64,000 bases of DNA from Kiritimatiellia bacterium (GTDB taxonomy: Bacteria; Verrucomicrobiota; Kiritimatiellia; RFP12; DVOR01), in contig JAVBLT010000001.1 of assembly GCA_031553315.1 (NCBI GenBank), positions 4,139-68,138 on the forward strand, in the 5' to 3' direction. Below the pieces are notes generated by a model, which searched no databases, was not told where the DNA came from, and saw nothing but the letters and a program-made list of their open reading frames with translations. Position numbers and translations under genes: made by a program. Of this stretch, positions 15,972 through 50,291 are shown piece after piece. Position 1 is the first letter of the stretch; each line of letters starts with the position of its first letter.

Positions 15972-16127
15972 GATAACCAAATCAAGCCATAAACGCTTAT
16001 TTCAAATTTTCTGTCTTTGCAATTGCGCTTTTTGAAACGCTATGCCACACTTGTGCTACATGGTTTGAACGAACACCACTCTAACGCGAAATGAAGCGAA
16101 ACGAAGCGCAATGAAACGAAACAGGGG

Positions 16128-16337: not shown

Positions 16338-16509
16338 AGAACTGGCAAGCCTGTCTTCCGTCGTTTTCGTCAGCACACGCGACAAATCAAATCTTCTCAA
16401 ATACAATTGTTTTTCTGTGTCAAATACAGCCTCTTTTGGGATCTCGTTACGCATATTCCAACGGAACCGTTCAGTTGCAAATCCTTTGGAGCAAAAAAAT
16501 ATTCCCTGT

Positions 16510-16673
16510 TAGAGCAATTTTCAAATGAGAATTCCTGATTTTATGAAAGCGATTTTCTTTTTGACGAACCCTTGAAAGGGAAGCGTAGCCGCGCTGCGAC
16601 AACCTGAAAAGGGTGAAGTTCAAAAACAAAAAGTACCGAGAAAAAGCGGAAAGATCAATCGAAATATGCTCTA
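16510..16673. mobile_element. MITE copy B (164 bp)
   Basis: TAGAGCAATTTTCAAATGAG ... GATCAATCGAAATATGCTCTA; the terminal CTA is the stop codon of the minus-strand antiporter gene. Confidence 0.55.
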
Positions 16674-18840: not shown

Positions 18841-18904
18841 AGCGCCTTTCGATTGAAAAGGAAAAGCGCCCAAAAAAGCGGCCTGTTCAATCGAAACATG
18901 CTCT
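18838..18904. mobile_element. MITE copy C (minimal 67-bp, palindrome-like version)
   Basis: TAGAGCGCCTTTCGATTGAAAAGG ... CCTGTTCAATCGAAACATGCTCT; both TIR cores present, internal region reduced. Confidence 0.45.
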
Positions 18905-18958
18905 TGTATCCGTTTTAAATCGTAGAAGCAACCCCTGAAAGTGGAGCGAAAGCAACGT

Positions 18959-21118
18959 ATGGAACCGAGTTCTTTGGATGCAAAAATGGCTGCCGCCCTC
19001 GCGGCCTCCCCGATCCCCGTGGCCGACATGCTGGCAGAGCTTGCCGCCGTGGCGGCGCTCAACGCCCCCGCGGTCGAGAAAAACCTCAACGCGTTGATCG
19101 AGGCCGTGGAGAAAGCCAAAGATTTCCCCGGCGCCGTCGCCTGCATCCGCTCCGCCGGCCGCTGGTTCCCCGCCTACCCCCGCGTTAAAGCCCGCGACAC
19201 ACTCTGCCGCACCGCATCCTGCCGCCGCCAGCAAGCCTTCATCGAACACGTCGGCATCATGGAAGCCGCGTCGCTGATCGACGCGATGAACCGGCTCGAC
19301 ACTCTTGCCGCGCTCGAACCCGGTGACCTCGTTTTCAACAAATCCTGGGGCTTCGGCATCATCCGCAAAATCGACGATTTTTACGCAAAAATCATCGTAG
19401 ACTTCACCGACAAAACCGGCTACACCTTCGGCTTCGCCGTCGCCGGCGAGCACCTCATGTCGGCCCCCGCCGACCACATCATGACCCGCCTCCACACCGA
19501 CAAAGCCTCCGTTCTCGCCGCCGCCTCCGAGACCCCCGGCGAGCTCCTCAAACACGTGATCCGCAGCTACGGCCCCATGACCGTCGCCCGCATCGAAACC
19601 CTTCTCGACCAGACCGGCATCGTGCCCAAAGGCAAATGGAAGACCTTCTGGTCCGCCGCCCGCGCAGAACTCAAGGGCGACAAGAAAATCGCCATTCCCG
19701 CCAAGCGCACCGAAACCGTCCGCATCCTCGACCGCGAACAGGGCCACGACGACGCCTGGCTCGACGCCCTCCGCGCCAACCGCGAGCCTAAAAAGATTTA
19801 TGCCGAAATCGGCGACTACCTCGCCGCCACCGAAGACGCCCCCCTCGCCGGCGCCTGGCTCGAAACCATCGAGAACCGCACCCGCTTCGCCATCCTCGGC
19901 GCCTACAAAACCGACCCCGCCCTCTACGCCCAGACCATCCTCCTCCTCAACCGCCTGCGCACCACCGGCGAAAACGGCGCCATCGTCTCCGTCGCCACGC
20001 AGGCGGATCGCGACGCCGCCTGCGAACACCTGATCGACGAAGACCGCTTCCTCGCCGCCGCCCAGGATCTCTCCGCCCGCGACATCCACGGCATGCTCGA
20101 TTTCCTCGTGCGCAACTGCTCCCAGGCCCCGGCCCGCGTCCGCGCCGCCTTCCCTCAGATGACCAGCGTCTGCCTCACCGAGGCGCTCGCCGTGCTCAAA
20201 GCCGACCCCGAAGCCGGAGCCGAAGTCCGCCGCCTCCTGAAAGACGCCAACGCCGCCCCCACCCTCCTCGTGTGGGCCATCCGCAACCGCGAAGCCGCCG
20301 ACGCCTGGCAAGCTCCCGGCCTCTTCGAGCTCCTCATGCAAGCCGTCCACGTCATCGAGCAAAAGCACACCGGCGAATCCCTGCGCATGCGCAACACCCT
20401 CCAGCAGTTCTTCGACTCCCAGAAATGGCTCGAAGAGGTGATGAAACAGCTTAAACCCTTCGAGCAGAGCGTCCTCTTCGAACGCATCCAGGCCGCCTCC
20501 GCCTGGGAAACCACCTCCCAGCGCAGCGTGCTCAACCGCATGGTCCGCTTCAACCCCGAGCTTGCCAAATCACGCAAAGTGCTCGCCGCCGAAGCCCAGG
20601 CCGAACACTACACCTCCTGGCGCTCACTCGCCGAATACCGCAACCAATACGAACGCCTTGTCCGCATCGAAATGCCGAAAAACGCCCAAGACATCGCCGC
20701 CGCGCGAAGCTACGGCGACCTGCGCGAAAACTTCGAATACCAGGCCGCCAAGGATCACCAGCGCGTGCTCCTCAACCGCCAGGCCGAAATGGATCTCGAG
20801 CTCAAAACCATCAAAGGCACCGATTTCGCCGACGCCAAGACCGACGTAGCCATGCCCGGCACCCAGATCACCCTGAGAATGGAAGACGGCAAAATCCGCA
20901 TCTTCACCATTCTCGGCGAATGGGATCGCAACGAAAAGCTCAACATCATCTCCAACAAAAGCCGCCTCGCCCTTTCCGTGCTCGGAAAGCCCGCCGGCAC
21001 CACCGTCCTGGTTCCCTCCGCCCTGGGCGAGCTCCAGGCCTCCCTCGAAAAGGTCGAACCAATCAGCGACGCCGTCAGGACCTGGCTCTCCTCCGAGCCG
21101 CCCCCGGTTAAAGAGTAA
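18959..21118 (+). CDS. GreA/GreB-domain protein with ~570-aa N-terminal extension
   Basis: C-terminal 150 aa (YGDLRENFEYQAAKDHQRVLLNRQAEMDLELKT...GTQITLRMEDGK...LSVLGKPAGTTVLVP) matches the GreA coiled-coil tip plus FKBP-like domain; N-terminal 570 aa has no recognised motif; start could be 18941 (GTG) or 18986. Confidence 0.65.
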   Translation: MEPSSLDAKMAAALAASPIPVADMLAELAAVAALNAPAVEKNLNALIEAVEKAKDFPGAVACIRSAGRWFPAYPRVKARDTLCRTASCRRQQAFIEHVGIMEAASLIDAMNRLDTLAALEPGDLVFNKSWGFGIIRKIDDFYAKIIVDFTDKTGYTFGFAVAGEHLMSAPADHIMTRLHTDKASVLAAASETPGELLKHVIRSYGPMTVARIETLLDQTGIVPKGKWKTFWSAARAELKGDKKIAIPAKRTETVRILDREQGHDDAWLDALRANREPKKIYAEIGDYLAATEDAPLAGAWLETIENRTRFAILGAYKTDPALYAQTILLLNRLRTTGENGAIVSVATQADRDAACEHLIDEDRFLAAAQDLSARDIHGMLDFLVRNCSQAPARVRAAFPQMTSVCLTEALAVLKADPEAGAEVRRLLKDANAAPTLLVWAIRNREAADAWQAPGLFELLMQAVHVIEQKHTGESLRMRNTLQQFFDSQKWLEEVMKQLKPFEQSVLFERIQAASAWETTSQRSVLNRMVRFNPELAKSRKVLAAEAQAEHYTSWRSLAEYRNQYERLVRIEMPKNAQDIAAARSYGDLRENFEYQAAKDHQRVLLNRQAEMDLELKTIKGTDFADAKTDVAMPGTQITLRMEDGKIRIFTILGEWDRNEKLNIISNKSRLALSVLGKPAGTTVLVPSALGELQASLEKVEPISDAVRTWLSSEPPPVKE

Positions 21119-21120
21119 GC

Positions 21121-22137
21121 ATGAAACCGCCCCACAGCGAAGCCAGCCGCAACACGCGCCCGCGCGGCAACGCCGCGCGCGTGCTGCAAGCCCTGCACGC
21201 TTACCCCCGCATCCTCGTGACCGGCCACGTCCGGCCCGACGGCGACTCCGTCGGCTCCTCCGTCGCCCTCGTCCTCATCCTCCAGGCCCTCGGGCACCGC
21301 GCCGCCCTCTCCATCCTCCCCGAAACCGTCGGCGGCCCCCGCTTTCTCCTTCAAGGCCTCCCCAACATCGCCCCCGCCGACCTTGCCGCCGGCGATTTCG
21401 ACGCCGTGGTCGCCCTCGACAGCAGCGCCGATTACCGCATCCCCGACCACATCCAGCCCCTCCTCCAGCGCCTCCCCGTCATCACCATCGACCACCACGG
21501 CACCAACCCCGGCTTCGGCATCATCTCCTGGGTCGAAAGCAACGCCTCCTCCACCGGCGAGCTCATCTACCGCCTCGCCCACCACGCCAGGCTCCCCCTC
21601 ACCCCAGCCATCGCCGAAGCCCTCTGGGTCGCCGTAATCACCGACACAGGCCGCTTCGCCTACGACTCCACCCACCCCTCCACCCTGCGCATGGCCGCCC
21701 GCCTCCTCGCAGCCGGCGTCCGCACCGCCGAAATCAACGACAAAATCTACATCTTCGCCTCCCGCAACGCCCTCGACCTGAAAAGCCGCGCCTACCAATC
21801 CCTCCAGACCTGGTACGAGGACCGCGTCTCCCTCGTCTCCCTCACAGCGGCCGACTTCCGCGAAACCGGCTGCAACAAGAGCGATGTGGAAGACGTCGTC
21901 GACATTCCCCGCGCCATCGAAAACAGCCTCGTCAACCTCTTCTTCTACGAATCCAACAGCCAGCCCGGCGTCACCCGCCTCAGCATCCGCACCCGCGGCG
22001 CGTGCGACGCCACCCTCCTCGCCGCCCAATTCGGCGGCGGCGGCCACTACCGCGCCGCCGGGTGCGACATCCCCGGCGACCTGCCCGCCGCCCGGCAAAC
22101 CGTCAAACAAGCCCTCGCCACCTGGTTCACACGCTAA
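21121..22137 (+). CDS. nrnA: DHH/DHHA1 phosphoesterase (NrnA-like oligoribonuclease/pAp phosphatase)
   Basis: 338 aa; DHH motifs ILVTGHVRPDGDSVGS, ALDSS, ITIDHHGTN; DHHA1 C-terminus with GGGH. Confidence 0.8.
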   Translation: MKPPHSEASRNTRPRGNAARVLQALHAYPRILVTGHVRPDGDSVGSSVALVLILQALGHRAALSILPETVGGPRFLLQGLPNIAPADLAAGDFDAVVALDSSADYRIPDHIQPLLQRLPVITIDHHGTNPGFGIISWVESNASSTGELIYRLAHHARLPLTPAIAEALWVAVITDTGRFAYDSTHPSTLRMAARLLAAGVRTAEINDKIYIFASRNALDLKSRAYQSLQTWYEDRVSLVSLTAADFRETGCNKSDVEDVVDIPRAIENSLVNLFFYESNSQPGVTRLSIRTRGACDATLLAAQFGGGGHYRAAGCDIPGDLPAARQTVKQALATWFTR

Positions 22138-22141
22138 CGCC

Positions 22142-23101
22142 ATGCAAAAAACACCCACCGTCTCCATCGGCCTGCCCGCCTACAAAGCCGCCTACTTCAG
22201 AACCGCCATCGAAAGCCTCCTCGCCCAGACCTACCCGCACTTCGAGCTCATCATCGTAAACGACGCCTCCCCCGAAGACCTCACCGCCATCGTCAATTCA
22301 TACACCGACCCCCGCATCCGCTACTACATCAACGAAGAAAACCTCGGCAAAACCTGCATCGTCAAAACCTGGAACCGCTGCCTCTCCTACGCCACCGGCG
22401 ATTACTTCGTCCTCGCCTCCGACGACGACATCTACCACCCCCGATTCCTCGAAAAGCTCATCGCGCGCGCCCTTGAGCAACCCGCCACCAACGTCTTCCA
22501 CTGCCGCATCAGCGTCGTCGACGAAAACGAAAACCTCCTCAGCGTGGCCCTCCCCTGCCTCACCCACGAAAGCCAGCTCGAATTCATCTTCAACCGCACC
22601 GTCCTGCGCCGCCAGCAAGTCGCCCCCGACTTCATGAGCCGCACCAGCCGCCTGCGTGAAATCGGCGGCTTCATCGAGCTCCCCCTCGGCTGGTACAGCG
22701 ACGACCTCACCTGGTTCCACCTCGCCGACCACGGCGTCGGCTACATCGAAGACCCCCTCTTCAAATGGCGCCTCTCCAAAATCAACATCTCCGGCTCCCC
22801 CGCCCAAGGCGAACAAAAAGCCCTCGCCGCCTTCGAATTCCACCGCCGCCTCTTCGACCTCATCCGCACCCTCGCCCCCGCCAACGAACGCGAAGCCTAC
22901 TGGCTCGGCAAAATCAACGCAAAAGGCCCCAGCGCGATCTTCATCCAGATGGTGAACGACATCCTCCCCCTCACCCACCTCCATTTCTGCAAGCTCTTCC
23001 TCCAGTTTGCCCGCCGCCGCGACTACCCCCGCCGCTTCCTCCCCTACATGCTCTTCAAAAAAATACAGCACACACTCGGCATCGAATTCCACTGGCCCTG
23101 A
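22142..23101 (+). CDS. family 2 glycosyltransferase
   Basis: VSIGLPAYKAAYFRTAIESLLAQTYPHFELIIVNDASPED and DxD (LASDDDIYHP) motifs of GT2. Confidence 0.8.
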   Translation: MQKTPTVSIGLPAYKAAYFRTAIESLLAQTYPHFELIIVNDASPEDLTAIVNSYTDPRIRYYINEENLGKTCIVKTWNRCLSYATGDYFVLASDDDIYHPRFLEKLIARALEQPATNVFHCRISVVDENENLLSVALPCLTHESQLEFIFNRTVLRRQQVAPDFMSRTSRLREIGGFIELPLGWYSDDLTWFHLADHGVGYIEDPLFKWRLSKINISGSPAQGEQKALAAFEFHRRLFDLIRTLAPANEREAYWLGKINAKGPSAIFIQMVNDILPLTHLHFCKLFLQFARRRDYPRRFLPYMLFKKIQHTLGIEFHWP

Positions 23102-23170
23102 GAAACACCCTTTACCTTCAATCAGCAATCCGGTATAGTATCAGGCGTTAGAACCGATATAGGAGACGCC

Positions 23171-25258
23171 ATGAACGTGACCGCCCTCTTCCCCATCCTC
23201 ATCGCCGGCAGCCTCTTCGCCGCCCCCGCCCGCCACCCCAGCTACGAACCCGACCCCCCGACCCCCGCCCTCGGCGGCCCCCAAAACCTCTTCCTCAACG
23301 CCAAAACAACCGCCAAAGACCACTGGTCCGACCGCACCCCCGCCCTCGCCGTCAACGGAAAAACCACCCCCGACAACCACTGGGCCAGCGACACCCTCCC
23401 CTCCTGGCACAGGATCGACCTCGAAAAAATCCAAACCCTCTCCACAATCCGCATCATCCCCTATTGGCCCGACGGCCGCATTTACCAGTTCCACATCGAA
23501 GCCTCGACCGACGGCCAAACCTGGATCACCCTCGCCGACCAGCGCGCCAACTCAATCAACACCGGCCCCAGCGGCTTCACCTTCACCTTCGACCCCACCC
23601 CCGCCCGCCACATCCGCACCACCTTCACCGGCAACACCGCCAACAACGCCGGCCACATCGTCGCCATCGAAGGCTACGCCGCAAAAATCGACCCCGCCGC
23701 CATCACCCTCCACCCCGGCCAGCGCTGGAAACGCTACCACCGCGACCAACCCGCCGACCTTGCCGGCGCCCCCACCGCCATCACCCTCCGCGGCTGGAAA
23801 GGCGAACGCGTCAACGCCATCGCCGTCGCCCAATCCCCCGAAAGCTTCAAAGAACTCATCATCGAACCCTGCACCCTCACCGGCCCGAAAGGCGAACAAA
23901 TCCCCGTAAAGGTCGACATCATCCGCTACACCCTCGCCAACGGAAACCTCACCCCCGACATCCTCGACGGCACCACCCAAACCACCTTCAAAGGCATCAC
24001 CCGCCCCCTCTTCATCAGCATCGACATCCCCCCCGCCGCCCCCCCCGCCGCCCACGGCACCCTCACCCTCCACATCAACGGCAACACCCGCACCCTCCCC
24101 ATCACCCTCAAGGTCGACGACCTCACCCTCCCCCCTCCCCCCCAATGGGTCAGCCATATCGACATCTGGCAACACCCCCACGCCGTCGCCCGCTGGCACG
24201 ACGTCCCCCCCTGGTCCCCCCAGCACCTCGCCCTCATGAAACCCGGCCTCAAACACCTCGCCGGCATCGGCCAGAAAACCATCACCGCCACCCTCATCGA
24301 CGAAGCCTGGAACAGCCAGACCTACGACCGCTTCCCCTCCATGATCCAATGGATCAAAAACCCCGACGGCACCTTCACCTACGACTACACCGCCTTCGAC
24401 ACCTGGGTCAGCTTCATGATCAGCGAAATCGGCATCAACAGCCAGATCTCCTGCTACACCATGCTCCCCTGGACCCTCACCTTCCCCTACTACGACAAAA
24501 CCCTCAACCGCACCATCTCCCCCCGCCTCCAGCCCGGCACCCCCCAATACGAAGCCCACTGGGGCCCCTTCCTCACCGACTTCACCACCCACCTCCGCCA
24601 AAAAGGCTGGCTCGGCATCGCCACAATCGCCATCGACGAACGCCCCGACAACCAAATCAAACCCGCCCTCGCCATCCTCAAAAAATACGCCCCCCAGCTC
24701 CGAATCACCTCCGCCTGCAACGCCCCCAGCGCCATCAACGAAGAATTTCACGACGTCTCCTACATCTTCACCCACGCCGAAAAAGCCGCCGCCCTCGCCG
24801 CCCAGCGCCGCGCCCAAGGCAAAAAAACCACCTACTACGTCTGCGTCCACCCCTTCCGCCCCAACACCTTCCTCGTATCCGACCTCGCCGAATCCGAATG
24901 GTTCCCCACCATGGCCGCCCACTACGGGTTCGACGGCATCCTCCGCTGGGCCTACCAATCCTGGGTTGAAAACCCCCTCCACACCACCGACTACACCGCC
25001 TTCCCCACCGGCGACACCGCCCTCATCTACCCCGGCGACCGCTCCTCCCTCCGCCTCGAATACCTGCGCGACGGCATCGAAACCCTCGAAAAATTCCACA
25101 TCCTGCGCACCATCGCCACCCCCCAGCAACGCGCCCCCATCGAAAAAGCCATCCAAGCCTTCACCGTCAAACGCGGCGGCACCCCCGGCATCCACGCCAG
25201 CGACCTCATCCCCCTGCACACCGCCCTCGACCACGTCGCCGACAACCTCGCGAAATAA
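23171..25258 (+). CDS. secreted protein: N-terminal F5/8 type C (discoidin/CBM32-like) domain plus DUF4091-like putative glycoside hydrolase domain
   Basis: signal peptide MNVTALFPILIAGSLFAAPA; discoidin-like block HWSDRTPALAVNGKT...NHWASD...WHRIDLEK...IPYW; the family of the C-terminal 450 aa is uncertain. Confidence 0.55.
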   Translation: MNVTALFPILIAGSLFAAPARHPSYEPDPPTPALGGPQNLFLNAKTTAKDHWSDRTPALAVNGKTTPDNHWASDTLPSWHRIDLEKIQTLSTIRIIPYWPDGRIYQFHIEASTDGQTWITLADQRANSINTGPSGFTFTFDPTPARHIRTTFTGNTANNAGHIVAIEGYAAKIDPAAITLHPGQRWKRYHRDQPADLAGAPTAITLRGWKGERVNAIAVAQSPESFKELIIEPCTLTGPKGEQIPVKVDIIRYTLANGNLTPDILDGTTQTTFKGITRPLFISIDIPPAAPPAAHGTLTLHINGNTRTLPITLKVDDLTLPPPPQWVSHIDIWQHPHAVARWHDVPPWSPQHLALMKPGLKHLAGIGQKTITATLIDEAWNSQTYDRFPSMIQWIKNPDGTFTYDYTAFDTWVSFMISEIGINSQISCYTMLPWTLTFPYYDKTLNRTISPRLQPGTPQYEAHWGPFLTDFTTHLRQKGWLGIATIAIDERPDNQIKPALAILKKYAPQLRITSACNAPSAINEEFHDVSYIFTHAEKAAALAAQRRAQGKKTTYYVCVHPFRPNTFLVSDLAESEWFPTMAAHYGFDGILRWAYQSWVENPLHTTDYTAFPTGDTALIYPGDRSSLRLEYLRDGIETLEKFHILRTIATPQQRAPIEKAIQAFTVKRGGTPGIHASDLIPLHTALDHVADNLAK

Positions 25259-25460
25259 CCCATGCACAGCGGCATAGACAACGTCGTCATCTGCGCCTCC
25301 GCCGGCTCAGGCAAAACCTACCAGCTCGCCCAGCGCTACATCAGCCTCCTCCGCCAAGGCGTCCCACCCGAACGCATCTGCGCCCTCACCTTCACCCGCA
25401 AAGCCGCCGGAGAAATGTTCGATAAAATCGTAGAAGCCCTCCTCCGCGCCCAACACGAAG

Positions 25461-25472
25461 CCCCCCCCCCCC
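25461..25472 (+). repeat. homopolymeric C12 tract at the first frameshift site of the helicase gene
   Basis: 12 consecutive C; reading frame changes from phase A to phase B across it. Confidence 0.8.
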
Positions 25473-27447
25473 GAAGCCCAAACCCTCACCCACATCCTCC
25501 GCAAACTCCTCCACGCCATCCCCCGCCTCCAAATCGCCACCCTCGACTCCTTCGCCTCCGGCATGGCCCGCGCATTCGCCTTCGAGCTCGGCCTCCCCGC
25601 CGCCATCACCCTCATGGACACCCAATCCCCCGAAGGCCGCGAAGAACAAGCCAAGCTCCTCGCCAACCTCACCGACCCCCGCCGCATCACCAAAAAAGCC
25701 CGCAACGACCTCCTCAAAGCCCTCACCCTCGCCACCCACGGCCAAGCCAGCAAAAAAAGCATCGAAACCACCCTCCAAACCTTCCTCGACCACTACGCCC
25801 CCACCCTCCGCGCCACCGCCCGCCACTGGGGCGACCTCACCCGCGCCTTCCCCCAAGGCCACCCCCGCCCCATCGCCGACCCCAGCCACCGCCGGCAGCT
25901 CCTCCAAACCGCCCAAACCAGCCTCCAGGCCGAAGCCCCCCAAATCGCCGACCGCCTCCTGCCCACCCTCCGCGCCTGCGCCCAATTCACCCCCGACCAC
26001 CCCCTGCCCAAATTTGAAGAGACCCTCCCCAAACAGCTCCTCACCCTCCTCGACCCCAGCCAAACCACCCTCACCTACAACCGCAAAACCTACCCCCTCA
26101 GCCAGCAAACCCTCACCCCCATCCGCGCCCTCCTCACCCACCTCGCCGCCACCGACCTCCAGCGCCACGCCCGCCAGACACACGGCATCGCCCTCGCCCT
26201 CGAACCCTACCTCCAGCTCGAAAGCAACCACATCATCCGCACCGGCCGCATGACCTTCGACGACCTCACCCGCCTCCTCACCCTCGCCGACGCCACCTTC
26301 ACCTCCGCCCACCCCACCCTCCTCGAAAAACGAATCTACATCGACTTCCGCATGGACACCCGCCTCGACCACTACATGCTCGACGAATTCCAAGACACCA
26401 GCGACCGCCAGTGGCAGCTCCTCCAACCCCTCATCAGCGAAGTCGTCACCCCCCCCCCCGGCGAAAAACGCTCCTTCTTCTACGTCGGCGACGTCAAACA
26501 ATCCATCTACGGCTGGCGCGGCGGCAACTACCACCTCTTCGGCCAGATCCACGACCAATACCGCCCCTGGCTCACCCAGCGCCAGCTCAACCAATCCTTC
26601 CGCTCCTCCCCCCCCGTCATCCAAACCATCAACCACGCCTTCGACCTCACCCGCCTCACCCAAACAACCCGCCAAAACCTCCCCCCCGCCACCCTCCAAT
26701 TCTGGCAAAACCAGTGGCAGCCCCACACCATCTCCCCCAAAAGCAAACCCCGCAACGGCATCGCCGAGCTCATCACCCACCCCCCCGGCGCCCCCGCCTC
26801 CGACACCATCGGCGACATCCTCCGCCACCTCCAAAGCCACGGCCCCAAACAGCTCAGCATCGCCATCCTCACCCGCAGCAACGACCAAGGCGCACACCTC
26901 GCCCAAGCCCTCAAAAGCCAAGGCTTCCCCATAGCCCTCGAAGGCAACCGCGACATCCTCGACTCCCCCCTCATCCACCTCGCCATCTCCTTCCTCCGCG
27001 CCATCAGCCACCCCGCCGACACCGCCGCCTGGGGCCACCTCCTCATCAGCCCCCTCGCCGCCACCTACGCCCCCGCCTGCGGCACCCCCACCGAACCCGG
27101 CACCCAAGCCCTCCGCACCGCCTTCTCCCACACCCACCTCCGCCACCTCCACCGCCACGGCCTCCAAAACCTCCTCAACAACCACCTCCTCCCCTTCCTC
27201 TGCCCCCAAACCTTCACCCCCCACGACACCCGCCGCTGGCGCGACCTCCTCCGCCTCGCCCGCCACGCCGACCAAAACGGCGACACCGACCTCGACACCT
27301 TCCTCCGCGCCATCCAAAGCCACACCATCCAAGACACCCCCACCGCCGGCACCATCCGCATCATGACCATCCACAAATCCAAAGGCCTCGGCTTCAACAT
27401 CGTCATCCTCCCCTTCCCCGAGCACGGCGAATCCCTCTCCAACCCCG

Positions 27448-27458
27448 CCCCCCCCCCC
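27448..27458 (+). repeat. homopolymeric C11 tract at the second frameshift site of the helicase gene
   Basis: 11 consecutive C; reading frame returns to the original phase across it. Confidence 0.8.
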
Positions 27459-28422
27459 TCCTCACCGGCCCCGACTGGGCCCTCCTCCGCCCCCACCCCC
27501 CCACCTGCAAGCTCCTCCCCCCCATCACCCAACACGACCAGCCCGCCCGCGCCGACAAAGCCTACGAAACCCTCGCCACCCTCTACGTCGCCCTCACCCG
27601 CGCCGAAAACGCCCTCTACATGATCCTCCCCCCCCCACCCAAAACAGAAACCACCATCCGCCCCGCCACCCTCCTACGCGAGACCCTCGCCGGCCAAACC
27701 CAAGGCACCTACCCCTCCGGCGCCGAAATCCACTACCGCCAAGGCGACCCCCACTGGCACCAAACCATCGCCCCCCTCCCCACAGCCACCCCCGCCCCAC
27801 CCTTCGACCCCGCCACCCTCAACCTACCCCCCGGGCACCCCCGGCCCAAACGCTTCGAGCCCTCCGCCACCCCCCCCCACCCCCAAACCATCGCCAGCCT
27901 CCTCGACCCCGCCCAAATCGCCATACGCGATTTCGGCACCGCCATCCACCGCCTCTTCAGCCGCATCCGCTGGCTCACCGACACCGACCTCGAAACCCAG
28001 ATCGCCACCTGGAAAGCAACCGCCCCCGAAGACCCCCAAATCATCCGCGACGCCGAAACCCAATTCCGCCACGCCATCACCCAGCCCCCCATCCGCGCCG
28101 CCCTCACCCCCCCCCCCACCCCCTGCACACTCTGGCTCGAAACCCCCTTCACCACCCGCCTCAGCCCCAGCCAATACATCGGCGGCCGCTTTGACCGCGT
28201 CCACATCCACCCCCACCGCGCCGAAATCTTCGACTACAAAAGCAGCCTCGTCGACACCCCCGCCCAAGCCCGCCACGCCGCCCAAACCTACCACCCCCAA
28301 ATGGCCCTCTACCGCCTCGCCCTCGCCCGCCTCCTCAACCTCCCCCCCCCCGCCATCACCGCCCACCTCCTCTTCACCCGCACCGGCCAACGCATCACCC
28401 TCACCTTCCAGGATTGATCGCC

Positions 28423-29343
28423 ATGCACCTCACCACCACCCCCGCCCACACCGGCACCCGCCTCGACGCCACCCTCGCCGCCCACCTCCCCCACTACCCC
28501 CGCCCCCTCCTGAAAGACGCCTTCGCCGCCGGCCTCATCCACGTCAACAACCGCCCCGCCCCCAAAGGCCTCATCCTCCAGCCCCACATGACCATCGACC
28601 TCAGCCGCCTCCCCCCCCCCGCCAGCCAATTTGCCCACCCCAACCCCGACCTCCCCCTTCCCCTCATCCACCAAGACCCCCACCTCCTCGCCTTCAACAA
28701 ACCCGCCGGCATACCCTGCCACCCCAACCGCCGCACCGAGCGCCACACCCTCGCCAACGCCATCGCCCACCACTACCCCACCCTCCTCGGCCTGGGCGAC
28801 ACCCCCCTCATGACCGGCATCCTCCACCGCATCGACACCCACACCTCCGGCCTCACCCTCGCCGCCCGCACCCCACACGCCTACACCCACCTCCGCCGCC
28901 AATTCCAGGCCCACACCATCGAAAAAATCTACCACGCCCTCGTCATCGGCACCCTCACCCGCCCCGCCACCCTCCGCCACAACCTCGCCCACCACCCCAC
29001 CTGCCCCGGCCGCATCATCAACGCCGACCACTGGCACGCCCCCCCCCGCCCCATGCCCGCCACCACCGCCTACACCCCCCTCAGCCACCACACCCTCAGC
29101 GGGCGCCCCTACACCCTCCTGGAAGTCACCATCCACACCGGCGTCACCCACCAGATCCGCGCCCAGCTCAGCTTCAGCGGCCACCCCATCCTGGGCGACA
29201 CCCGCTACGGCGCCCCCCCCCACCCCGCCTTCCCCCGCCACTTCCTCCACGCCAGCGCCCTCACCCTCCTCCACCCCCAAACCAGCCACCCCATCACCCT
29301 GCGCGCCCCCCTTCCCCCCGACCTCCAGCAACTTCTCACCTGA
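28423..29343 (+). CDS. RluA-family pseudouridine synthase
   Basis: HQDPHLLAFNKPAGIPCHP and LHRIDTHTSGLTLAART (catalytic Asp motif); overlaps the helicase stop. Confidence 0.8.
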   Translation: MHLTTTPAHTGTRLDATLAAHLPHYPRPLLKDAFAAGLIHVNNRPAPKGLILQPHMTIDLSRLPPPASQFAHPNPDLPLPLIHQDPHLLAFNKPAGIPCHPNRRTERHTLANAIAHHYPTLLGLGDTPLMTGILHRIDTHTSGLTLAARTPHAYTHLRRQFQAHTIEKIYHALVIGTLTRPATLRHNLAHHPTCPGRIINADHWHAPPRPMPATTAYTPLSHHTLSGRPYTLLEVTIHTGVTHQIRAQLSFSGHPILGDTRYGAPPHPAFPRHFLHASALTLLHPQTSHPITLRAPLPPDLQQLLT

Positions 29344-29348
29344 AAAGT

Positions 29349-29377
29349 TTGACACTCCCCCCGCATTCTGTTATTCT
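29349..29377 (+). promoter_or_regulatory. sigma70-like promoter for tRNA-Thr (TTGACA-17 nt-TATTCT)
   Basis: TTGACA at 29349-29354, TATTCT at 29372-29377, 16 nt before the tRNA. Confidence 0.45.
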
Positions 29378-29393: not shown

Positions 29394-29469
29394 GCCGGGT
29401 TAGCTCAGTTGGTAGAGCAGCTGATTTGTAATCAGCAGGTCGTCGGTTCGAGTCCGGCCCCCGGCTCCA
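29394..29469 (+). tRNA. tRNA-Thr (anticodon TGT)
   Basis: GCCGGGTTAGCTCAGTTGGTAGAGCAGCTGATTTGTAATCAGCAGGTCGTCGGTTCGAGTCCGGCCCCCGGCTCCA. Confidence 0.85.
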
Positions 29470-29552: not shown

Positions 29553-30656
29553 TAGAGCAACTTTCTATTGAAATGTCCTTGCCTGGCATGATCTGAACCA
29601 CCCTTCTGTATCAAGACTTGTAACCCTTGAAATCGCCTCCGTAATGGCATCAGACAAGAGCTCTTGTGTTCGTGCGGCCAAACCGCGTAACGTTGTTTTG
29701 ACCTTGCTCCACATCTTTTCAATCGGGTTGAAATCAGGACTGTAAGGCGCAAGAAAGAGAACACGGGCACCACAATTTTCAATGATCACTCTGGCTTGAG
29801 GATCAAGGAGTGTGCTGAGATCGTCCATCACAACGACATCGCCCGGGCGCAGTTTGGGCGACAAAACGTACTCAACACAGGCGCGAAACGCGGCTCCATT
29901 CATGGCTCCCGGCAATTCCATCACCGCCGTTGAACCATCCAGCCAGACGGCGCCAATGAGCGTGGTCGTACACCCATGCCCGTGCGGCGCGTGGGCAAAG
30001 AGGCGTTCGCCGCCGTAAGCCCATCCGCGCAAACGGGTCATGTTGGTTTTCGCACCGGATTCATCGATAAAAATCAGGTGTTCGGGATCGAGCGTTTGGA
30101 GTAATTGGAGCCACAGGAGCGCGCCGGTCGAATCGAAACACCAATCCGCCACTTCCCACGGCAGCCACAGCGAGAGGCGCACCCGGTCGCCGAGGGCTTG
30201 GCGCTGGGCAAGGGTGCGCTGCACGGGCCGCCCGGTCTCGGGGTCAACGGCGGCGGCGCACCGGTCGGCCTGAACCCAGAGCCACTGGCACGCGGTGAGC
30301 GTTTCCGACACATCGAGCCAGAAATCGGCAATGCTTTTGCCGGTGCCCGTGCAGTCGGCCTCAAACGCGGGGTCGATGCCCGCGCGCTCGATCTCGCGGC
30401 TGAACAGATACTGATTGATTTTGGCGGCCACGCGACCCGCGTCGTTGACCACCGCCGCGCGGTTGCGGCGGCCGGTGCACCCCGAGGCGGCGAAAGGGCG
30501 GTTGCCCGTCCACGACGCCTCGCTTTCATTGGGCGCCCTCCACAGGCGGGCGTCTACATACGCCCTGCCGCCGTGCAGCGCCAAAACGTTCAAGACAAGC
30601 TGATCCTTGCGCCCGGCCAGAATCCGGTGCCGCCGCTTCGCGATGATTCCCTGCAT
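29553..30656 (-). mobile_element. IS630-family insertion sequence (one recognisable end at 29553; the other end not identifiable)
   Basis: terminal sequence TAGAGCAACTTTCTATTGAAATG at 29553 shares the TIR core of the five MITE copies; contains the transposase ORF below. Confidence 0.6.
29565..30656 (-). CDS. IS630/Tc1-mariner family DDE transposase
   Basis: 363 aa; IFIDESG (first D) and APYSPDFNPIEKMWSKVK (the classic IS630 D-34-E region). Confidence 0.85.
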   Translation of the reverse strand: MQGIIAKRRHRILAGRKDQLVLNVLALHGGRAYVDARLWRAPNESEASWTGNRPFAASGCTGRRNRAAVVNDAGRVAAKINQYLFSREIERAGIDPAFEADCTGTGKSIADFWLDVSETLTACQWLWVQADRCAAAVDPETGRPVQRTLAQRQALGDRVRLSLWLPWEVADWCFDSTGALLWLQLLQTLDPEHLIFIDESGAKTNMTRLRGWAYGGERLFAHAPHGHGCTTTLIGAVWLDGSTAVMELPGAMNGAAFRACVEYVLSPKLRPGDVVVMDDLSTLLDPQARVIIENCGARVLFLAPYSPDFNPIEKMWSKVKTTLRGLAARTQELLSDAITEAISRVTSLDTEGWFRSCQARTFQ

Positions 30657-30658
30657 GG

Positions 30659-31183
30659 TTACCCTTTCACAATCCGTTCGATCATCTTTTCAAAGTCTTC
30701 GGTGATTTTTTTTTCGCTGTCGGCCAGTGCCCGCTCGATGAATTTATGGTCGGCGCGGTCGCCCTTCGCCCGCGTGCCGGGGCCGCGTTTGCGCCAACTG
30801 GTACCCTTTTCATTGTGGATTTTCGCGGCGTATTTGCCCGCCTCGCTGTTGGCGGCCACAAAAACCTCGGCCTCAAGGCTGGGATACACCTTCTGTTCGA
30901 TGCTCCGCTCAAGACCTCGGGGTTTGGCGCGGCTTGTGGCGCGGTTGTTGCGCTTACCTTTGCGCTTGGTTTTTTTGAGAGCGTTTTTCTGTGCCTGCGT
31001 GGGGCTTCGGGGGGCGTTGCGCCGCGCCTCGCGCTGCACGAGCAGAGCGGCTTTCGCAAGTTGATCATTGACCCTTTCGAGCAATTTCTTGCCCTTGAAG
31101 CCCAATTGCGCGACCAATAAGCCGACGTCTAAACCTGTGGTGTAAATCTCCATGCCATTGGCCACGGTGTCAACCCGGGGCAC
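30659..31183 (-). CDS. phage-related protein, possibly an HK97-gp10-like head-tail connector (weak)
   Basis: 174 aa, Lys/Arg-rich middle; stop codon lies 2 nt from the transposase start; lies in the phage-remnant island. Confidence 0.35.
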   Translation of the reverse strand: MPRVDTVANGMEIYTTGLDVGLLVAQLGFKGKKLLERVNDQLAKAALLVQREARRNAPRSPTQAQKNALKKTKRKGKRNNRATSRAKPRGLERSIEQKVYPSLEAEVFVAANSEAGKYAAKIHNEKGTSWRKRGPGTRAKGDRADHKFIERALADSEKKITEDFEKMIERIVKG

Positions 31184-31198
31184 AAAAAAGCCGCCCGG

Positions 31199-31465
31199 TC
31201 AGGGGCGGCGGTTGAGGCGTGCGAGGCGTGATTGCTTCGGGTCGAAACCGATGAGATTCCATCGCTTCTTTTTTGGGTCGTACTCATACTCGGCGTCTTT
31301 TTCAACAAATTCTTTGATGCGCGCCTCGGTTACAGTCATATCAAGGTCGGGCTCATTTGCGAATCTCGCCATGCCGATAGCTTTATGAATGGCGAATGCC
31401 CGCGCGGGGTGGCGCCCCGTTCCGGCGGGAAGGGTACCCCAATCCTCTTTGTAAAGCCCGACCAT
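31199..31465 (-). CDS. small hypothetical protein immediately downstream of the MuF C-terminal module (candidate immunity protein); start uncertain (31465 ATG or 31582 TTG)
   Basis: 88-127 aa; lies in the same low-GC (~45%) segment as the MuF C-terminal domain; no motif. Confidence 0.3.
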   Translation of the reverse strand: MVGLYKEDWGTLPAGTGRHPARAFAIHKAIGMARFANEPDLDMTVTEARIKEFVEKDAEYEYDPKKKRWNLIGFDPKQSRLARLNRRP

Positions 31466-31529
31466 CTCATCGAAGTCGGCGTCTGTGTAGCCCAAATCCG
31501 GGCGAAAATCATAAATTAAATGCACGGAG

Positions 31530-32816
31530 TTACTCCTCTTTGTGGCGAAGCACCTTATACGACATTCCTGTTTCTTTTGCAACTCTTTTCCAAATCATAT
31601 TTCCTTCCAATATGTCACGTTCGGCTCTGGTTATCCGTTCGCTTGCCATTCGTTTGGAAAGGATTTCATTCACTTCTCTTTCCGCCTTCAAGTAGGATCT
31701 TGTGATGTCGTTTTCGTGTGGCCATTTTCCCTCACGGGTCATTACATAGTCGCGGCGAGGCGAAACCGCGCGAATCGAGCGCATGTTGCCATCTGCCGCC
31801 GTCACCACGTCCGCAAAGGAAAGACTGGTTCCGTATCCCATAAACTGCCCGGGGTGGTTGTGAACCATCGTCGCATCAACAAGTTTTCCAAACCACTCTT
31901 TTGGAAGTTTCCCGCCGTTTACGCCACTGCGCTTCCGGTCGAAAAGCATATTGCCGTTGGAATCCATCGCACTGAAATACTCGCACCCCTTCGATTTCAT
32001 GTAGTCGCGCTCACTGGCAATTTTAGCCTTCAGTTCCGGGCTTTCGATACGGTCTTCGGCGCGTTGCTTTTCAATTTGCTTCGCTTCCTCTTTTTCGAGT
32101 TTTTCACCGTATTTTCGCCCCTCCGCCGCCGCGCGTTCCCGTGCCTTTTCGAGTCGCGTTTCTTTTCGGTCATCTTCGCGCTGTTTTACGCGTTCCTTCG
32201 CTCCTGCTATTTTTTCTTTTCTCGCCGCTTCCCGCGCCTTCTTCGCTTCGCGCTCGGGGTCTTCGCCGCGGGCTCGCCCCGCCGCCGCCTTGAGGCCGCC
32301 GACAACCTCCTCGGCTCCGGCGCCGCGTTCCACGCGTAAAACGCCGCCCCTGCTACTCATGCGGAAGCCCGGCTGTTCGCCCTTCTTGGCATACTGGATG
32401 CGCGGCAGCTCGCCCTTGTAAAACGTATCAAGGTCTTCGGGCTTGGCCGATGCCGCCGCTTCCTTCGCAATGGCGCTGTCGAAAAGACCGTGGCGCACGG
32501 CGGTTTCGACTTCATCGCGGGCGGTCTGGCGCTCGGCATCTTGCCGCGAAAGCCCCCCCTCCTCCATGTGGCGCCGCGTGGTCAATTCGCGTTGGCGGCG
32601 GTGCATGGCCTCTTCATCGGCCATCTCATCGGCGGTCGGCTTGCCCAGCGCCGCCTGCCGCGCCATTTCGCCCGCTTCGCGCGGTTCGTCGATGTATTCC
32701 AGGCGATGGGTGCAGTTGGGGTGAAAGACTCCCGCCGCCTGCGCCTCGGCGTAGGTCGGGTAATCCTTCGATTTGCCCGCCACGCAGACGATTTGCCCCT
32801 CCCATGCGCCGCACAC
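31530..32816 (-). pseudogene. N-terminally truncated phage MuF/SPP1-gp7 family head morphogenesis protein with charged linker and divergent C-terminal domain
   Basis: begins (GTG) just before the MuF domain's terminal motif VFHPNCTHRLEY (hPNCRC-like); open frame upstream to 32990 lacks the rest of the domain; long E/K/R-rich linker; the last ~150 aa sit in a low-GC segment. Confidence 0.5.
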
Positions 32817-33021
32817 ATCGCAGGGGGAGCCGGAATCGGCGGAAATCAGCGCCAGTGAAATCTCGCTTTCAACGGGGGTGTCGATGTAGGCCTCGTTATG
32901 ACGAACTGCGGGGGCGGAAGGTTTTTTCTTTTTGGCTTGTCTTTCGGGCTCGGCGGGATTATTCTGTTCGCTTCCATTTTTGTATCATAGAGGCGTATTT
33001 TTTTATTGTTAGAGGCAGAAT

Positions 33022-35029
33022 TATGGCAACGATCACTCACGAGCAACTGGCGTTGGCGGCAAATACCCTGCGCTGTCTTTCCATCGATGCGGTTCAGGCG
33101 GCTAAATCCGGTCATCCCGGCATTGCCCTGGGCCTGGCCGATGTGGCGGCTGTGCTGTGGCTCAAATACCTGAAGGCCTGGTCGGGTCACTCCAAATGGC
33201 CCGACCGCGACCGTTTTGTGCTCTCCGGCGGTCACGGCAGCGCTTTGCTCTACAGCCTTCTGCACCTCTCGGGGTATCAGATTTCGATCGATGATCTCAA
33301 GCGCTTCCGTCAATTCGGCAGCAAAACCCCCGGCCACCCCGAATACGGCTACACCGATGGCGTGGAAACCACCACCGGCCCGCTCGGCCAGGGCATCGCC
33401 AACGGTGTGGGCATGGCCGTCGCCGAGCGTATGCTGGCGGTGCGTTTCAACTGCGAGGCGCGCACGGTGGTCGACCACCGCACCTGGGTCTTTTGCGGCG
33501 ACGGCGACATGATGGAGGGCATCAGCCACGAAGCCTGTTCCATGGCCGGTCACCTCGGGCTTGAAAAGCTTGTGATGTTTTACGATTCGAACAACATCAC
33601 CATCGAAGGCAAGGTCGACCTTGCCATGACCGATGATACCGCCAAGCGTTTCCAGGCCTACGGCTGGCATGTGCTCGCCTGCAACGGCCATGATTTCGAC
33701 GACATCGACAAAACCATCCGCAAGGCCACCCGCCTCACCGGCAAGCCCGTCCTCATCATTTGCACGACGACCATCGGCAAAGGCTCCCCCAACAAGGCCA
33801 ATTCCGAGGAAAGCCACGGAGCGCCTTTGGGCGAAGACGAAGTGCGCCTCACCAAAACCGCCCTCGGCTGCGACCCCGACCTGCATTTCCACGCCCCCGA
33901 TTCCGTCTACGATCTCTTCCAGGCCCGCCAGGACGAAGTCAAAAAAACTTACGGTCGCTGGAACCGCATGCAGAAGGCCTGGGCCAAGGAAGACAAAACC
34001 TCCTTCGAGCTTTGGCGCGCGTATAATGAAGACGTTATTCCCGACCTGAGCGGCGTGATGCCCTCTTTCGACCCCGCCAAACCCGTCGCCACCCGCTCCG
34101 CCTCCGGGGCCGTGCTCAACGCCATCGCCCCGCTTGTGCCTCAGCTCGTGGGCGGTTCCGCCGATCTGGGCTCCAGCAACATGACTGTGCTCAAAGGCCT
34201 GGGCGACATCACCGCCGGCGCCTTCGAAGGGCGCAACTTCCACTTCGGCGTGCGCGAGCTGGGCATGGCCGGCGTGATGAACGGCATCGCCATCCACGGC
34301 GGTCTGCGCGTCTACGGCGCCACCTTTTTCGTGTTCAGCGACTACTGCCGCCCCGCCATGCGCATCGCCGCGCTCATGGGCGCTCCCGTGGTCTATGTGT
34401 TCTCGCACGACAGCTTCTATGTGGGCGAAGACGGCCCCACTCACGAACCCGTGGAGCAGCTCGCGGCGCTTCGGATGATGCCCGGCATGACCGTGATCCG
34501 CCCGGCCGACGCCACCGAAACCGTCGCCGCCTGGAACGTGGCCCTCAACCACAAGCACGGCCCCGTGGCTCTCCTGCTCACCCGCCAGAACGTGCCTGTG
34601 CTCGACCGCGCCGTTTACCCCGCGGCCGAAAACCTCGCCAGGGGCGCCTACACCCTCTGGCAGACCCGCCCGGAAGAGACGCCGGAAATGATCATCATCG
34701 CCACCGGATCCGAGGTGGAAATCGCCCTCGAAGCCGCCAAGGCCTTCACGCACCGCAATGTCCGCGTCGTCAGCATGCCCTCGTGGGAACTGTTCGACGA
34801 ACAGCCCAAAGCGTACCGCGATTCCGTGCTCGACCCCGCCTGCGCCAAGCGCATGGCCGTGGAAGCCGGTTCCTCCTTCGGCTGGCAGAAATACATCGGG
34901 TGCGACGGCGCCACCGTCTGCCTCGACACCTTCGGCGCCTCCGGCCCCTTCAAAGTGCTCGCCACGCAATTCGGTTTCACCGCCGAAAACGTGCTCATGG
35001 TCGCCCGCACTCACATGATCGCCAAGTAA
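33022..35029 (+). CDS. tkt: transketolase
   Basis: 669 aa; N-terminus EQLALAANTLRCLSIDAVQAAKSGHPGIALGLADVAAVLW and the GDGDMMEG TPP-binding motif. Confidence 0.9.
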
Positions 35030-43640: not shown

Positions 43641-44048
43641 ATGAGCGATTCATGTGTTTTTTGCCGGATTTTCAAAGGGGAAATCCCTTCGCGCCGTATC
43701 TTTGAAGACGACCACGCCTACGCGTTTCTCGATATTGAGCCCGCCGAAGAAGGCCATACCCTCGTGATCCCCAAATTCCATGCCGCCACCCTCTTCGAGC
43801 TCCCCCCCGAAGAGCTCGCCGGCATGATGCCCGCCGTTCACCGCGTGGCCATGATGCTCCGCCACCGCCTCGCCTGCCACGGCATGAACCTCCTGCAATC
43901 CAACGGCGCCTGCGCCCTCCAGACCGTGGGCCACGTGCATTTCCACCTCATTCCCCGCTGGGAGAACCGGGCCGTGACCTGGCACGCCAACCGCGAAGCC
44001 GCCGCTCCCGAACAGCTCGATGCGCTTCACAAAAAAATCATTGGCTAA
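43641..44048 (+). CDS. HIT-family nucleotide hydrolase (HinT-like)
   Basis: 135 aa; CVFCRIFKGEIPS..., histidine triad HVHFHLIPR. Confidence 0.85.
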   Translation: MSDSCVFCRIFKGEIPSRRIFEDDHAYAFLDIEPAEEGHTLVIPKFHAATLFELPPEELAGMMPAVHRVAMMLRHRLACHGMNLLQSNGACALQTVGHVHFHLIPRWENRAVTWHANREAAAPEQLDALHKKIIG

Positions 44049-44066
44049 GCCCCGGAAAATTTGAAC

Positions 44067-49198: not shown

Positions 49199-49263
49199 AA
49201 GAAGCGCCCTATGATTCCACCGATAAATGACAGCGCGAAATGATTGCCAATTGAAGCCGCATC

Positions 49264-50271: not shown

Positions 50272-50291
50272 TTGAAAGAAAAGGTTTCCCC

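Follow-up and report, generated by a model that had tools for sequence, protein, structure and literature searches.

A truncated phage MuF2 gene with an exchangeable JAB-like C-terminal domain and a small partner gene in a Kiritimatiellia genome

Is a fragment of a phage head gene lying between host genes still a working toxin, or is it the leftover of a system that once acted in a phage? The question is raised by a locus in a 64,000-nucleotide stretch of a Kiritimatiellia bacterium genome (assembly GCA_031553315.1, contig JAVBLT010000001.1, positions 4,139–68,138), here called the window; all coordinates below are positions in it. The initial annotation had described a minus-strand open reading frame (ORF) of MuF type with a small ORF behind it and had proposed that the two form a toxin–immunity pair. 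Our analysis gave a probability of roughly 60% to a different reading, namely that the locus is a 5′-truncated relic of a phage minor-head MuF2 gene with a polymorphic C-terminus, that the intact system would be a virion-delivered JAB effector with its partner, and that the copy in the window is inert. The predicted JAB hydrolase effector and its cognate partner are best supported as a cargo family that is new but belongs to a known type of system.

Truncation and exchangeable C-terminus of the MuF2 gene

The ORF at 31530–32816 was found as described, with a GTG start and a length of 428 aa, and its N-terminus was indeed the end of a MuF-type domain, in which the motif GVFHPNCTHRLEYID aligned with the same motif in full-length PF06152 proteins. 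Together with the preceding CDVCGAWEGQIVCVAG, it could be aligned with the proteins P0010 (637 aa), P0016 (614 aa), and P0019 (627 aa), all of which match Pfam PF06152 (Phage_min_cap2). The ORF itself gave a weak match to PHROG 4611, “minor head protein” (E 5e-4), and no match in Pfam. It had been stated that the open frame upstream of the GTG contains no MuF sequence, but approximately 29 codons at 32817–32903 (RHNEAYIDTPVESEISLALISADSGSPCD) were homologous to MuF2 proteins. These codons have no start codon, because the first ATG, GTG, or TTG after the stop is the one at 32816. The blastp homology to seven MuF2 proteins starts at their residues 202–231; therefore, about 200–230 N-terminal residues are missing. 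The remaining fragment was 40–47% identical to the matching part of seven siblings that pass the PF06152 threshold. Since only the last ~85 codons of the domain are left, 29 of them untranslatable, the fragment is the remnant of a MuF2 member and not an intact one. The 5′ truncation suspected at the edge of the island next to the transketolase gene was thus real, but its point lies at ~32900, about 120 bp from the start of that gene at 33023.

Downstream of the MuF2 fragment, a charged linker followed by a C-terminal domain had been predicted; both were present, the domain comprising ~166 aa. The linker region consists of a conserved “pre-module” part and a spacer rich in lysine, glutamate, and arginine (Table 1). 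The pre-module part is also conserved in P0010, P0016, and P0019, relative to which the spacer is mostly an insertion (alignment A4). Short internal direct repeats (D3, 32159–32235) were observed within the spacer.

The siblings of the gene were collected with a metagenome scan anchored on the neighboring HK97-gp10-like gene (gp10), not on the MuF gene itself. The scan yielded 14 loci, and seven of these include the upstream MuF2 gene. The window protein was 40–47% identical to the seven sibling proteins over the MuF tail. The match extended at the same level of identity through the ~120-residue linker in L220, L221, L223, L226, and L230 (E 1e-33 to 6e-53) and was shorter in L227 and L228. In these five, the homology ended at residues ~175–200 of the window ORF, just past the sequence ...P.FQ.AKKGE..G(F/W)R..S.GGV(V/L)R. 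Behind this junction, L223 (651 aa) carries Gln_amidase, “Papain fold toxin 1” (PF15644), L226 (560 aa) carries LPD3 (PF18798), and L230 (672 aa) has a zincin-like region with an HEQGH motif. Modules of no known type follow in L220 (~300 of 713 aa) and L228 (~760 of 1044 aa), and no C-terminal module is present in L221 (435 aa) or L227 (335 aa). The same MuF2 domain and linker are joined to a JAB-like domain in the window protein and in P0010, P0016, P0019, and P0022. Thus, unrelated modules occupy one position in this MuF2 lineage; the suggested module swapping at the C-terminus was borne out, as the siblings diverge past a single junction, and the window gene belongs to a polymorphic-system architecture with exchangeable C-terminal modules.

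Identity and distribution of the JAB-like domain

The C-terminal domain, formed by the last 166 residues of the ORF, had been reported to contain no recognizable motif. However, the JAMM signature E...HxH...S..D is present in it. With HMMER, 1.84 billion cluster representatives were searched exhaustively. This detected 192 relatives (clusters at 50% identity) at E≤1e-3, including 21 at E≤1e-10, and nearly all of them contain HNHP, a variable loop, and the sequence S-F/L-S-x-x-D. Among 79 multidomain relatives, E268, H308, H310, P311, and D325 (numbering of the relative P0001) were invariant, and N309 and S322 were conserved in at least 90%. Every conserved JAMM residue is retained in the window copy. 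Among the relatives, HxH and S..D are separated by ~6 to 21 residues.

An AlphaFold2 model built from 32 family members reached a predicted local distance difference test score of 94 and a predicted template modeling score of 0.88, and the C-terminal domain had the JAB (deaminase-like alpha+beta) fold in it. The best Foldseek matches to the domain model were not significant. In an hhalign comparison with Escherichia coli YicR, the core strand and both motifs were aligned (72.6% probability, E 3e-5), with the alignment limited to 51 columns. The domain thus represents a distinct JAB-fold family that has a RadC-like HNHP signature and its own C-terminal two-helix extension. The family lies outside every curated family and is related to the RadC clade without being a member of RadC.

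Neither the C-terminal domain nor the small ORF was matched when the four island proteins were run against Pfam, PHROGs, NCBIfam, and PADLOC. In word-indexed protein searches the domain had no relatives, and the profile versions of these searches recovered the input members only; sequence and profile searches of the PDB with the domain gave no match. Pattern-based locus scans with the 428-aa protein detected nothing in genome, viral, or metagenome collections, and the corresponding scans with P0010 and P0006 returned the query itself or nothing. The JAB-related Pfam signals among the 32 members consisted of one match to RadC (E 0.005) and one to DUF4329/Tox-JAB-2 (E 0.0045), both below threshold, and the window domain gave none. 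A further candidate identity, the Ct_MAD domain, was tentatively rejected: Jamet et al. (PMC5576092) trace it to the C-terminal part of COG2369, which would make it a domain of the Mu gpF C-terminal (MuF-C/PBECR) type rather than JAB.

The architecture of the relatives links the domain to phage heads. Among 79 relatives of 300–900 aa, 33 match PF04233 (Phage_Mu_F) and five match PF06152, and the JAB-like domain is C-terminal; 66 of the 150 relatives listed are shorter than 300 aa and represent stand-alone copies or fragments. The contigs encoding full-length proteins are phage head modules, in which the MuF-JAB gene accompanies terminase, portal, and capsid genes or Mu-like F, G, I, and T genes. 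The domain was also found in cultured phages, in both cases in genes annotated as “hypothetical protein”: in Dorea phage DO134P1 it ends a 502-aa gene located after the gene in the portal position, and in Aphanizomenon phage CL131 a stand-alone copy lies in the structural module. A tblastn search of cultured phages with the window domain gave no match, and the same search with a distant family member found three phages only. A degenerate FVHNHPSG pattern applied to the DNA of viral contigs was uninformative, with 120 loci, eight weak family matches, and no small ORF.

In large phage proteins, two to four JAB-like copies occur in tandem (P0027, P0034, P0056, P0064, P0020, and P0024). P0024 combines two copies with a Pfam match to ADPrib_exo_Tox. 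P0027, as read by eye, consists of a MuF motif, an ADP-ribosyltransferase-like region, and four JAB-like copies separated by GGPGSGIxGHxT linkers, which may be processing sites.

MuF proteins such as SPP1 gp7 and Mu gpF are located in the capsid, and domains fused to them have been proposed to be delivered into the infected cell (PMC5512222, PMC5576092, PMC3482391). By extension, the MuF part of an intact protein would set it inside the capsid at the portal, and the conserved ~120-aa linker would lead to the KKGE..G(F/W)..S.GGV motif. The module behind this junction would ride in the virion and enter the infected cell with the DNA. In the present case, the module is a predicted metal-dependent JAB/JAMM hydrolase of RadC-like HNHP type, with a peptide or isopeptide bond or a nucleic acid as candidate substrates.

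Another possibility is that the JAB domain is a morphogenetic peptidase. In that case it would work within the producing cell or the procapsid, processing MuF itself, scaffold, or head proteins or freeing sister domains from polyvalent precursors; the small protein would assist assembly, and the next host would not be a target. The constant location of the genes within head-morphogenesis modules is consistent with this, as is the annotation of some MuF-like genes of cultured phages as “capsid maturation protease,” and the conserved linkers between the tandem copies could be cleavage sites. However, siblings with the same MuF2 domain, linker, and gp10 bear a deamidase toxin, LPD3, a zincin-like region, or no module at all, which indicates that the JAB module is dispensable for assembly. 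Moreover, most MuF proteins of cultured phages have no JAB module, and one stand-alone copy (L086) occurs in a non-phage neighborhood. A morphogenetic role is therefore considered quite unlikely.

It is also conceivable that the ejected JAB domain is a counter-defense isopeptidase, which would remove ubiquitin-like or CD-NTase conjugates made by Bil or by the cyclic-oligonucleotide-based antiphage signaling system CBASS (Cap2) and thereby mimic the Cap3 or BilC enzymes of the host itself, while the small protein would keep the domain inactive or folded before packaging. MuF-fused and polyvalent domains have been proposed to be early anti-host effectors (PMC5512222), and several paralogous copies per protein, as in P0027, P0034, and P0056, would suit many targets. 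However, the structural similarity of the domain to Cap3 and BilC was no better than that to other JAMM enzymes. The HNHP sequence and the hhalign result point instead to the RadC clade, for which the absence of a ubiquitin-tail groove and an action on nucleic acids have been argued (PMC5512222, PMC3482391), and no genomic link to ubiquitin-like systems was found. This specific role appears even less probable than a morphogenetic one.

Partner gene and composition of the cassette

The small ORF exists directly downstream of the MuF-JAB gene, as had been noted, although its best boundaries are 31199–31525 rather than 31199–31465 or 31199–31582. Its GTG start lies 4 nt past the upstream stop codon and 7 nt past a Shine-Dalgarno sequence (AGAGGAG), and two gene callers agree on it. 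The terminator-like hairpin that overlaps its stop codon is a pattern match only, and such sites in the region are no more numerous than in shuffled sequence.

The occurrence of the small ORF was compared across nine independent MuF-JAB loci with MuF1 and MuF2 backbones (the window, L002, L003, L004, L005, L089, L215, L216, and L218). Its homologues were detected by phmmer in L002 (5e-13), L003 (7.5e-13), and L005 (1e-5) and by profile search in L004 (2.6e-17), L089 (8e-6), L216 (1.4e-8), and L218 (4.3e-8); the match in L215 was doubtful (0.037). The expected conservation and co-occurrence were confirmed: a homologue follows eight of the nine MuF-JAB genes and none of the seven siblings without JAB (Fisher p 0.0014). 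Across the loci, the ORF starts from 11 nt before to 9 nt after the MuF-JAB stop. No homologue was present at two stand-alone JAB-like loci.

In the Mu-like modules L089/L090 and L216/L217, the MuF-JAB gene and the small partner ORF lie between gene F and gene G (Phage_tail_S), and in L089/L090 a Mu-like protease gene follows gene G. In Mu itself, no gene is known to lie between F and G; compared with this canonical order, the cassette would be inserted. A different family of small, Zn-ribbon-like ORFs (CxxC...C.AFPDGIP...FDHR.P.PGD.GIRFE) was observed at L230:3855–4052 and L086:4296–4550, with 43% identity between the two (E 6e-13). It is located directly 3′ of the zincin-like MuF2 gene in L230 and of the stand-alone JAB-like gene in the non-phage setting of L086.

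A break in GC content within the MuF gene had been described as the hallmark of module exchange. The break is real (Fisher p 1e-5, residues 1–180 versus the last 166), but the low part has ~50–54% GC and not ~45%, and the break lies at about residue 180 (~32276), where the spacer begins, instead of at the start of the C-terminal domain. Residues 1–180 have a GC content of 0.669 and a GC content at third codon positions (GC3) of 0.78. The corresponding values are 0.569 and 0.52 in the spacer (residues 181–262), 0.496 and 0.56 in the last 166 residues, and 0.543 and 0.61 in the small ORF, whereas GC3 of host genes (tkt, lysS, and an rluA-like gene) is 0.82–0.94. Two simple explanations were rejected. 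The drop is not merely an effect of an amino acid composition rich in lysine and glutamate, since it is seen at third positions and runs through the JAB domain and the next gene; nor is the 67%-GC 5′ part of the MuF gene host-like, as its position-3 skew is −0.02 compared with −0.4 to −0.9 in the host.

The GC3 break in the window falls at the polymorphic junction. In all nine MuF-JAB loci, the stretch coding for the JAB domain and the small ORF after it both had lower GC3 than the MuF portion at the 5′ end and the neighboring phage genes (mean drop 0.21; sign test p 0.002). By the co-occurrence of the partner and the shared drop in GC3, the JAB domain and the small ORF behave as one co-transferred unit. 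Modules other than JAB also show the drop beyond the KKGE...GGV junction, as it was found in four of the five other extended siblings: the variable part has lower GC3 in L220, L223, L228, and L230, but not in L226. In L223, GC3 falls from 0.9–0.98 to 0.50–0.58 past the junction. The modules may have been acquired repeatedly from a pool with lower GC, or selection may have favored AT-ending codons; either could account for the direction of the shift.

According to the preferred reading, phages would exchange the JAB module as a cassette that includes one translationally coupled partner of ~60–110 aa. Within the producing cell, this partner would most likely bind the JAB domain and serve as a neutralizer (immunity protein) or a chaperone. 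A bolder version, to which we attach about as little weight as to the morphogenetic role, assigns a specific target to the family. The MuF-linked JAB domain would be either an injected isopeptidase that strips ubiquitin-like or CD-NTase conjugates (Bil, CBASS) or a RadC-type nucleic-acid enzyme that disarms other defenses, with the small protein as its dedicated inhibitor or chaperone, and the low GC3 would reflect a cassette moving between phages of very different hosts.

State of the window copy and comparison with known systems

The 3.5-kb island that contains the pair spans the gap between a tRNA-Thr gene and the transketolase gene, and all four of its ORFs are on the minus strand (Table 1). 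The whole island (29565–33022) is foreign by position-3 G/C skew, which is ~0 versus −0.4 to −0.9 in host genes; this applies also to the 5′ part of the MuF gene, which would pass for host DNA if judged from its GC content of 67% alone. The island holds neither the delivery domain nor the rest of the phage; the pair adjoins a gp10 gene that is likewise orphaned and a portal-like gene interrupted by a fragment of an IS630-family insertion sequence (IS). Prophage decay between tRNA-Thr and tkt has most likely left the pair behind as an inert remnant.

Table 1. Features of the island and its boundaries in the window.
Feature	Position	Strand	Evidence or remarks
tRNA-Thr(TGT)	29394..29469	+	ARAGORN; Rfam tRNA, 64 bits; island boundary
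IS630-family transposase, C-terminal half	29565..30089	-	NCBIfam NF033545 6e-30 (residues 187-345); Pfam DDE_3 1e-25
Portal-like phage structural gene, N-terminal fragment (~187 aa), cut off by the IS630 fragment	30090..30656	-	PHROG 145 “portal protein” 1.4e-6 (residues 63-187)
HK97-gp10-like tail-completion/neck gene, 174 aa, seemingly intact	30659..31183	-	PHROG 5 3.9e-5; TIGR01725 4.8e-4 (under its cut-off)
Terminator-like GC hairpin and T run, overlapping the small-ORF stop codon	31190..31209	-	Consensus scan: 7 GC pairs, then TTTTTTGTG
Small partner ORF, 108 aa, GTG start	31199..31525	-	Conserved motif GYTDxDFxxxVxLYxxxFGxxPxGxGxxPSRxFAI ... RW.L
JAB/MPN+ (JAMM)-like C-terminal domain, ORF residues 263-428, then stop	31530..32030	-	E (CEYFSAM), HNHP, S..D (SLSFAD)
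Lysine-, glutamate-, and arginine-rich low-complexity spacer, residues 181-262	32031..32276	-	GC3 falls at its start; alignment A4
Conserved “pre-module” linker, residues ~58-180, ending in the junction motif P.IQYAKKGEQPGFRMSSRGGVLRV	32277..32645	-	40-47% identity, five siblings
Last ~85 codons of MuF2 (Phage_min_cap2-type) domain, including CDVCGAW and GVFHPNCTHRLEYID	32646..32903	-	blastp against seven MuF2 proteins; alignment A4; PHROG 4611
Host transketolase gene, other island boundary	33023..35029	+	Host-type codon bias: GC3 0.82, position-3 GC skew -0.41

The retention of the pair had been taken as a hint of selection, and an active addiction or defense pair is the form that this proposal would take: a protein would be made from GTG 32816 or 32783, its JAB domain would be toxic in the cytoplasm, the 108-aa protein would neutralize it, and selection would keep the pair after the loss of the prophage. 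Neither ORF is interrupted, the catalytic-type residues have been preserved, and the partner gene is coupled and equipped with the Shine-Dalgarno sequence and the terminator-like hairpin. In a sibling phage, the same position is taken by Gln_amidase, a bona fide toxin domain. In addition, Tox-JAB-1/Imm65 and Tox-JAB-2/Imm-NTF2-2 are known JAB toxin–immunity pairs (PMC3482391), and small ORFs follow 89% of MuF toxin genes (PMC5576092). However, the best promoter candidate is a 9-of-12 consensus match, no good ribosome-binding site precedes either GTG, and PADLOC found no match to known defense-system models among the four island proteins. Stand-alone JAB-like genes also occur without this partner. 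The retention itself does not require selection, because gp10 and the broken portal-like gene have been kept as well, as expected for neutral decay between two deletion end-points, and the locus is represented by a single sequence (two sources, 100% identical), in which nothing points to selection. We therefore consider an active pair in the window unlikely, if less so than a morphogenetic role of the domain; the terms toxin and immunity are inferred here from the architecture only.

Several observations weigh against the reading as a relic of a virion-delivered system. The two window ORFs are intact, with the catalytic-type residues, Shine-Dalgarno sequence, and hairpin mentioned above, so some residual function of the pair is possible. 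The JAB-like domain also occurs alone, with L086 in a non-phage neighborhood and two stand-alone loci without a partner gene, and its tandem arrangement in giant proteins (four copies in P0027) is unlike that of classical polymorphic toxins. The nine and seven loci compared are a small sample of metagenomic contigs picked by similarity. Finally, the steadily lower GC3 could result from selection for AT-ending codons rather than from transfer.

The gp10 of the island is 53% identical to the product of the gene located after MuF-JAB and the small ORF in L004 (phmmer 3e-46), and the portal-like fragment is homologous (2.5e-28) to the gene two places 3′ of MuF-JAB in L003. A 363-aa ORF at 29565–30656 on the minus strand is an in-frame fusion of the portal-like N-terminal fragment with the C-terminal half of the IS630 transposase. 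The transposase scored 104.7 bits against the NF033545 cut-off of 100 and covers model positions 139–298 only, and it is thus a truncated copy. A contig of an independent assembly from the Sequence Read Archive (L001) ends at the portal/IS630 junction, at 30085; such breaks are expected at repeat edges, and this one suggests further copies of the IS elsewhere in the genome. Neither the IS fragment nor any of the island genes occurs a second time in the 64-kb window. A 3.3-kb contig identical to the locus is present in SRR23967709 and provides the second source of its sequence.

The tRNA-Thr gene is a likely former phage integration site. An att-like direct repeat flanking the island was not found, and in a blastn search of the island against phages the tRNA was the sole match. 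The ORF on the other side is taken to be tkt, as in the initial annotation, from a reading of its sequence by eye. It is 60% identical to a homologue in metagenome-assembled genomes of Kiritimatiellae and Lentisphaerae, and a genome scan anchored on it returned no close host relative (≤60% identity); the host itself appears to belong to the uncultured bacteria of the PVC group.

The host genes themselves have an unusual composition. In the intervals 18900–29350, 6000–9000, and 44000–54000, C extremely exceeds G on the coding strand, with a position-3 GC skew of −0.4 to −0.88; tkt and lysS are far less skewed than the other host genes. Two of the genes, an rluA-like (28414–29343) and a uvrD-like (25563–27623) one, are skewed at positions 1 and 2 as well (−0.3 to −0.4), and the encoded proteins contain 33–38% H+P+T+Q and 12–16% G+E+D+V+K; their Pfam families are still matched. 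Along the run of co-oriented genes from 18.9 to 29.3 kb, the skew climbs through −0.25, −0.36, −0.48, −0.55, and −0.61, and the bias stops at the tRNA-Thr/island boundary. A second low-GC stretch lies at 15884–17000 (0.486 over 16001–17000 versus ~0.62 for the window); it adjoins a tRNA-Leu gene (15884–15971) and may be another integration site.

For the host, the window copy, as a decaying remnant, would be of little importance. The family that it revealed is of wider interest. MuF-fused cargo is thought to be carried in the capsid and injected with the phage DNA, and only a few cargo types have been tested. The 192 clusters define a widespread cargo family whose members are all “hypothetical” in public records and which is absent from Pfam, PHROGs, and NCBIfam. 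The siblings are a clean natural case in which a single MuF2 lineage has exchanged modules at a defined junction. The action of the JAB domain on entry, whether as peptidase or nuclease and as toxin or anti-defense factor, is directly testable with the cultured phages that bear it.

Comparison with RadC-like JAB proteins (PF04002; E. coli YicR; Chlorobium RadC, PDB 2qlc) showed that they share with the present family the sequence HNHP(S/G)G...S..D and the upstream Glu, in addition to the aligned motifs. The differences are the lack of a Pfam match at threshold, a variable insert between HxH and S..D that is ~5 to 19 residues longer here, an additional C-terminal extension that comprises two long helices plus a strand and contains conserved W and Y residues, the MuF fusion, and the dedicated partner gene. 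In polyvalent proteins, the RadC clade has been listed from conjugative elements only (PMC5512222). The modules Tox-JAB-1 and Tox-JAB-2, listed among polymorphic toxins as predicted nucleases (PMC3482391), likewise combine a JAB fold as an exchangeable C-terminal module with a dedicated small partner. However, they are delivered by Rhs, T6SS (type VI secretion system), T7SS (type VII secretion system), or TcdB, and MuF is not among their delivery routes in the survey (PMC3482391). As to family membership, the window domain had no match to DUF4329 (PF14220), the Tox-JAB-2 family, and the signal in one of the 32 members remained below threshold.

In the C-terminal tips of Rhs and CdiA proteins, GC content drops suddenly at a conserved junction motif, and both the tip and the downstream small gene have lower GC. 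The same drop at a junction was observed here, although the scaffold is a phage capsid protein and the drop was followed at third positions, in nine of nine JAB cassettes and four of five other modules.

The relatives of the window protein resemble polyvalent proteins (Iyer et al., 2017, PMC5512222) in joining MuF, an ADP-ribosyltransferase, and four JAB-like copies (P0027), or ADP-ribosyltransferase, Zeta-toxin, and intein domains. LPD3 in a sibling phage and the predicted role of virion-delivered early effectors are further shared features. The window protein has a single effector domain and is not polyvalent in the sense of two such domains, whereas P0027 and P0024 are.

Compared with the polymorphic MuF toxins that temperate phages carry (Jamet et al., 2017, PMC5576092), a delivery type termed “MuF phage-capsid-like” by Zhang et al. 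(2012, PMC3482391), the differences are that the module here represents a JAB-fold family without a Pfam model and that the window copy has lost the MuF delivery domain; the term “JAB” is absent from the main text of the MuF-toxin paper (PMC5576092). The features in common are, for the lineage, a MuF N-terminus (MuF2/PF06152 type, of which the window copy keeps a remnant), modules that vary past a conserved junction, a small ORF that follows directly, the location in head/packaging modules or prophages, and the presence of Gln_amidase at the same position in a sibling.

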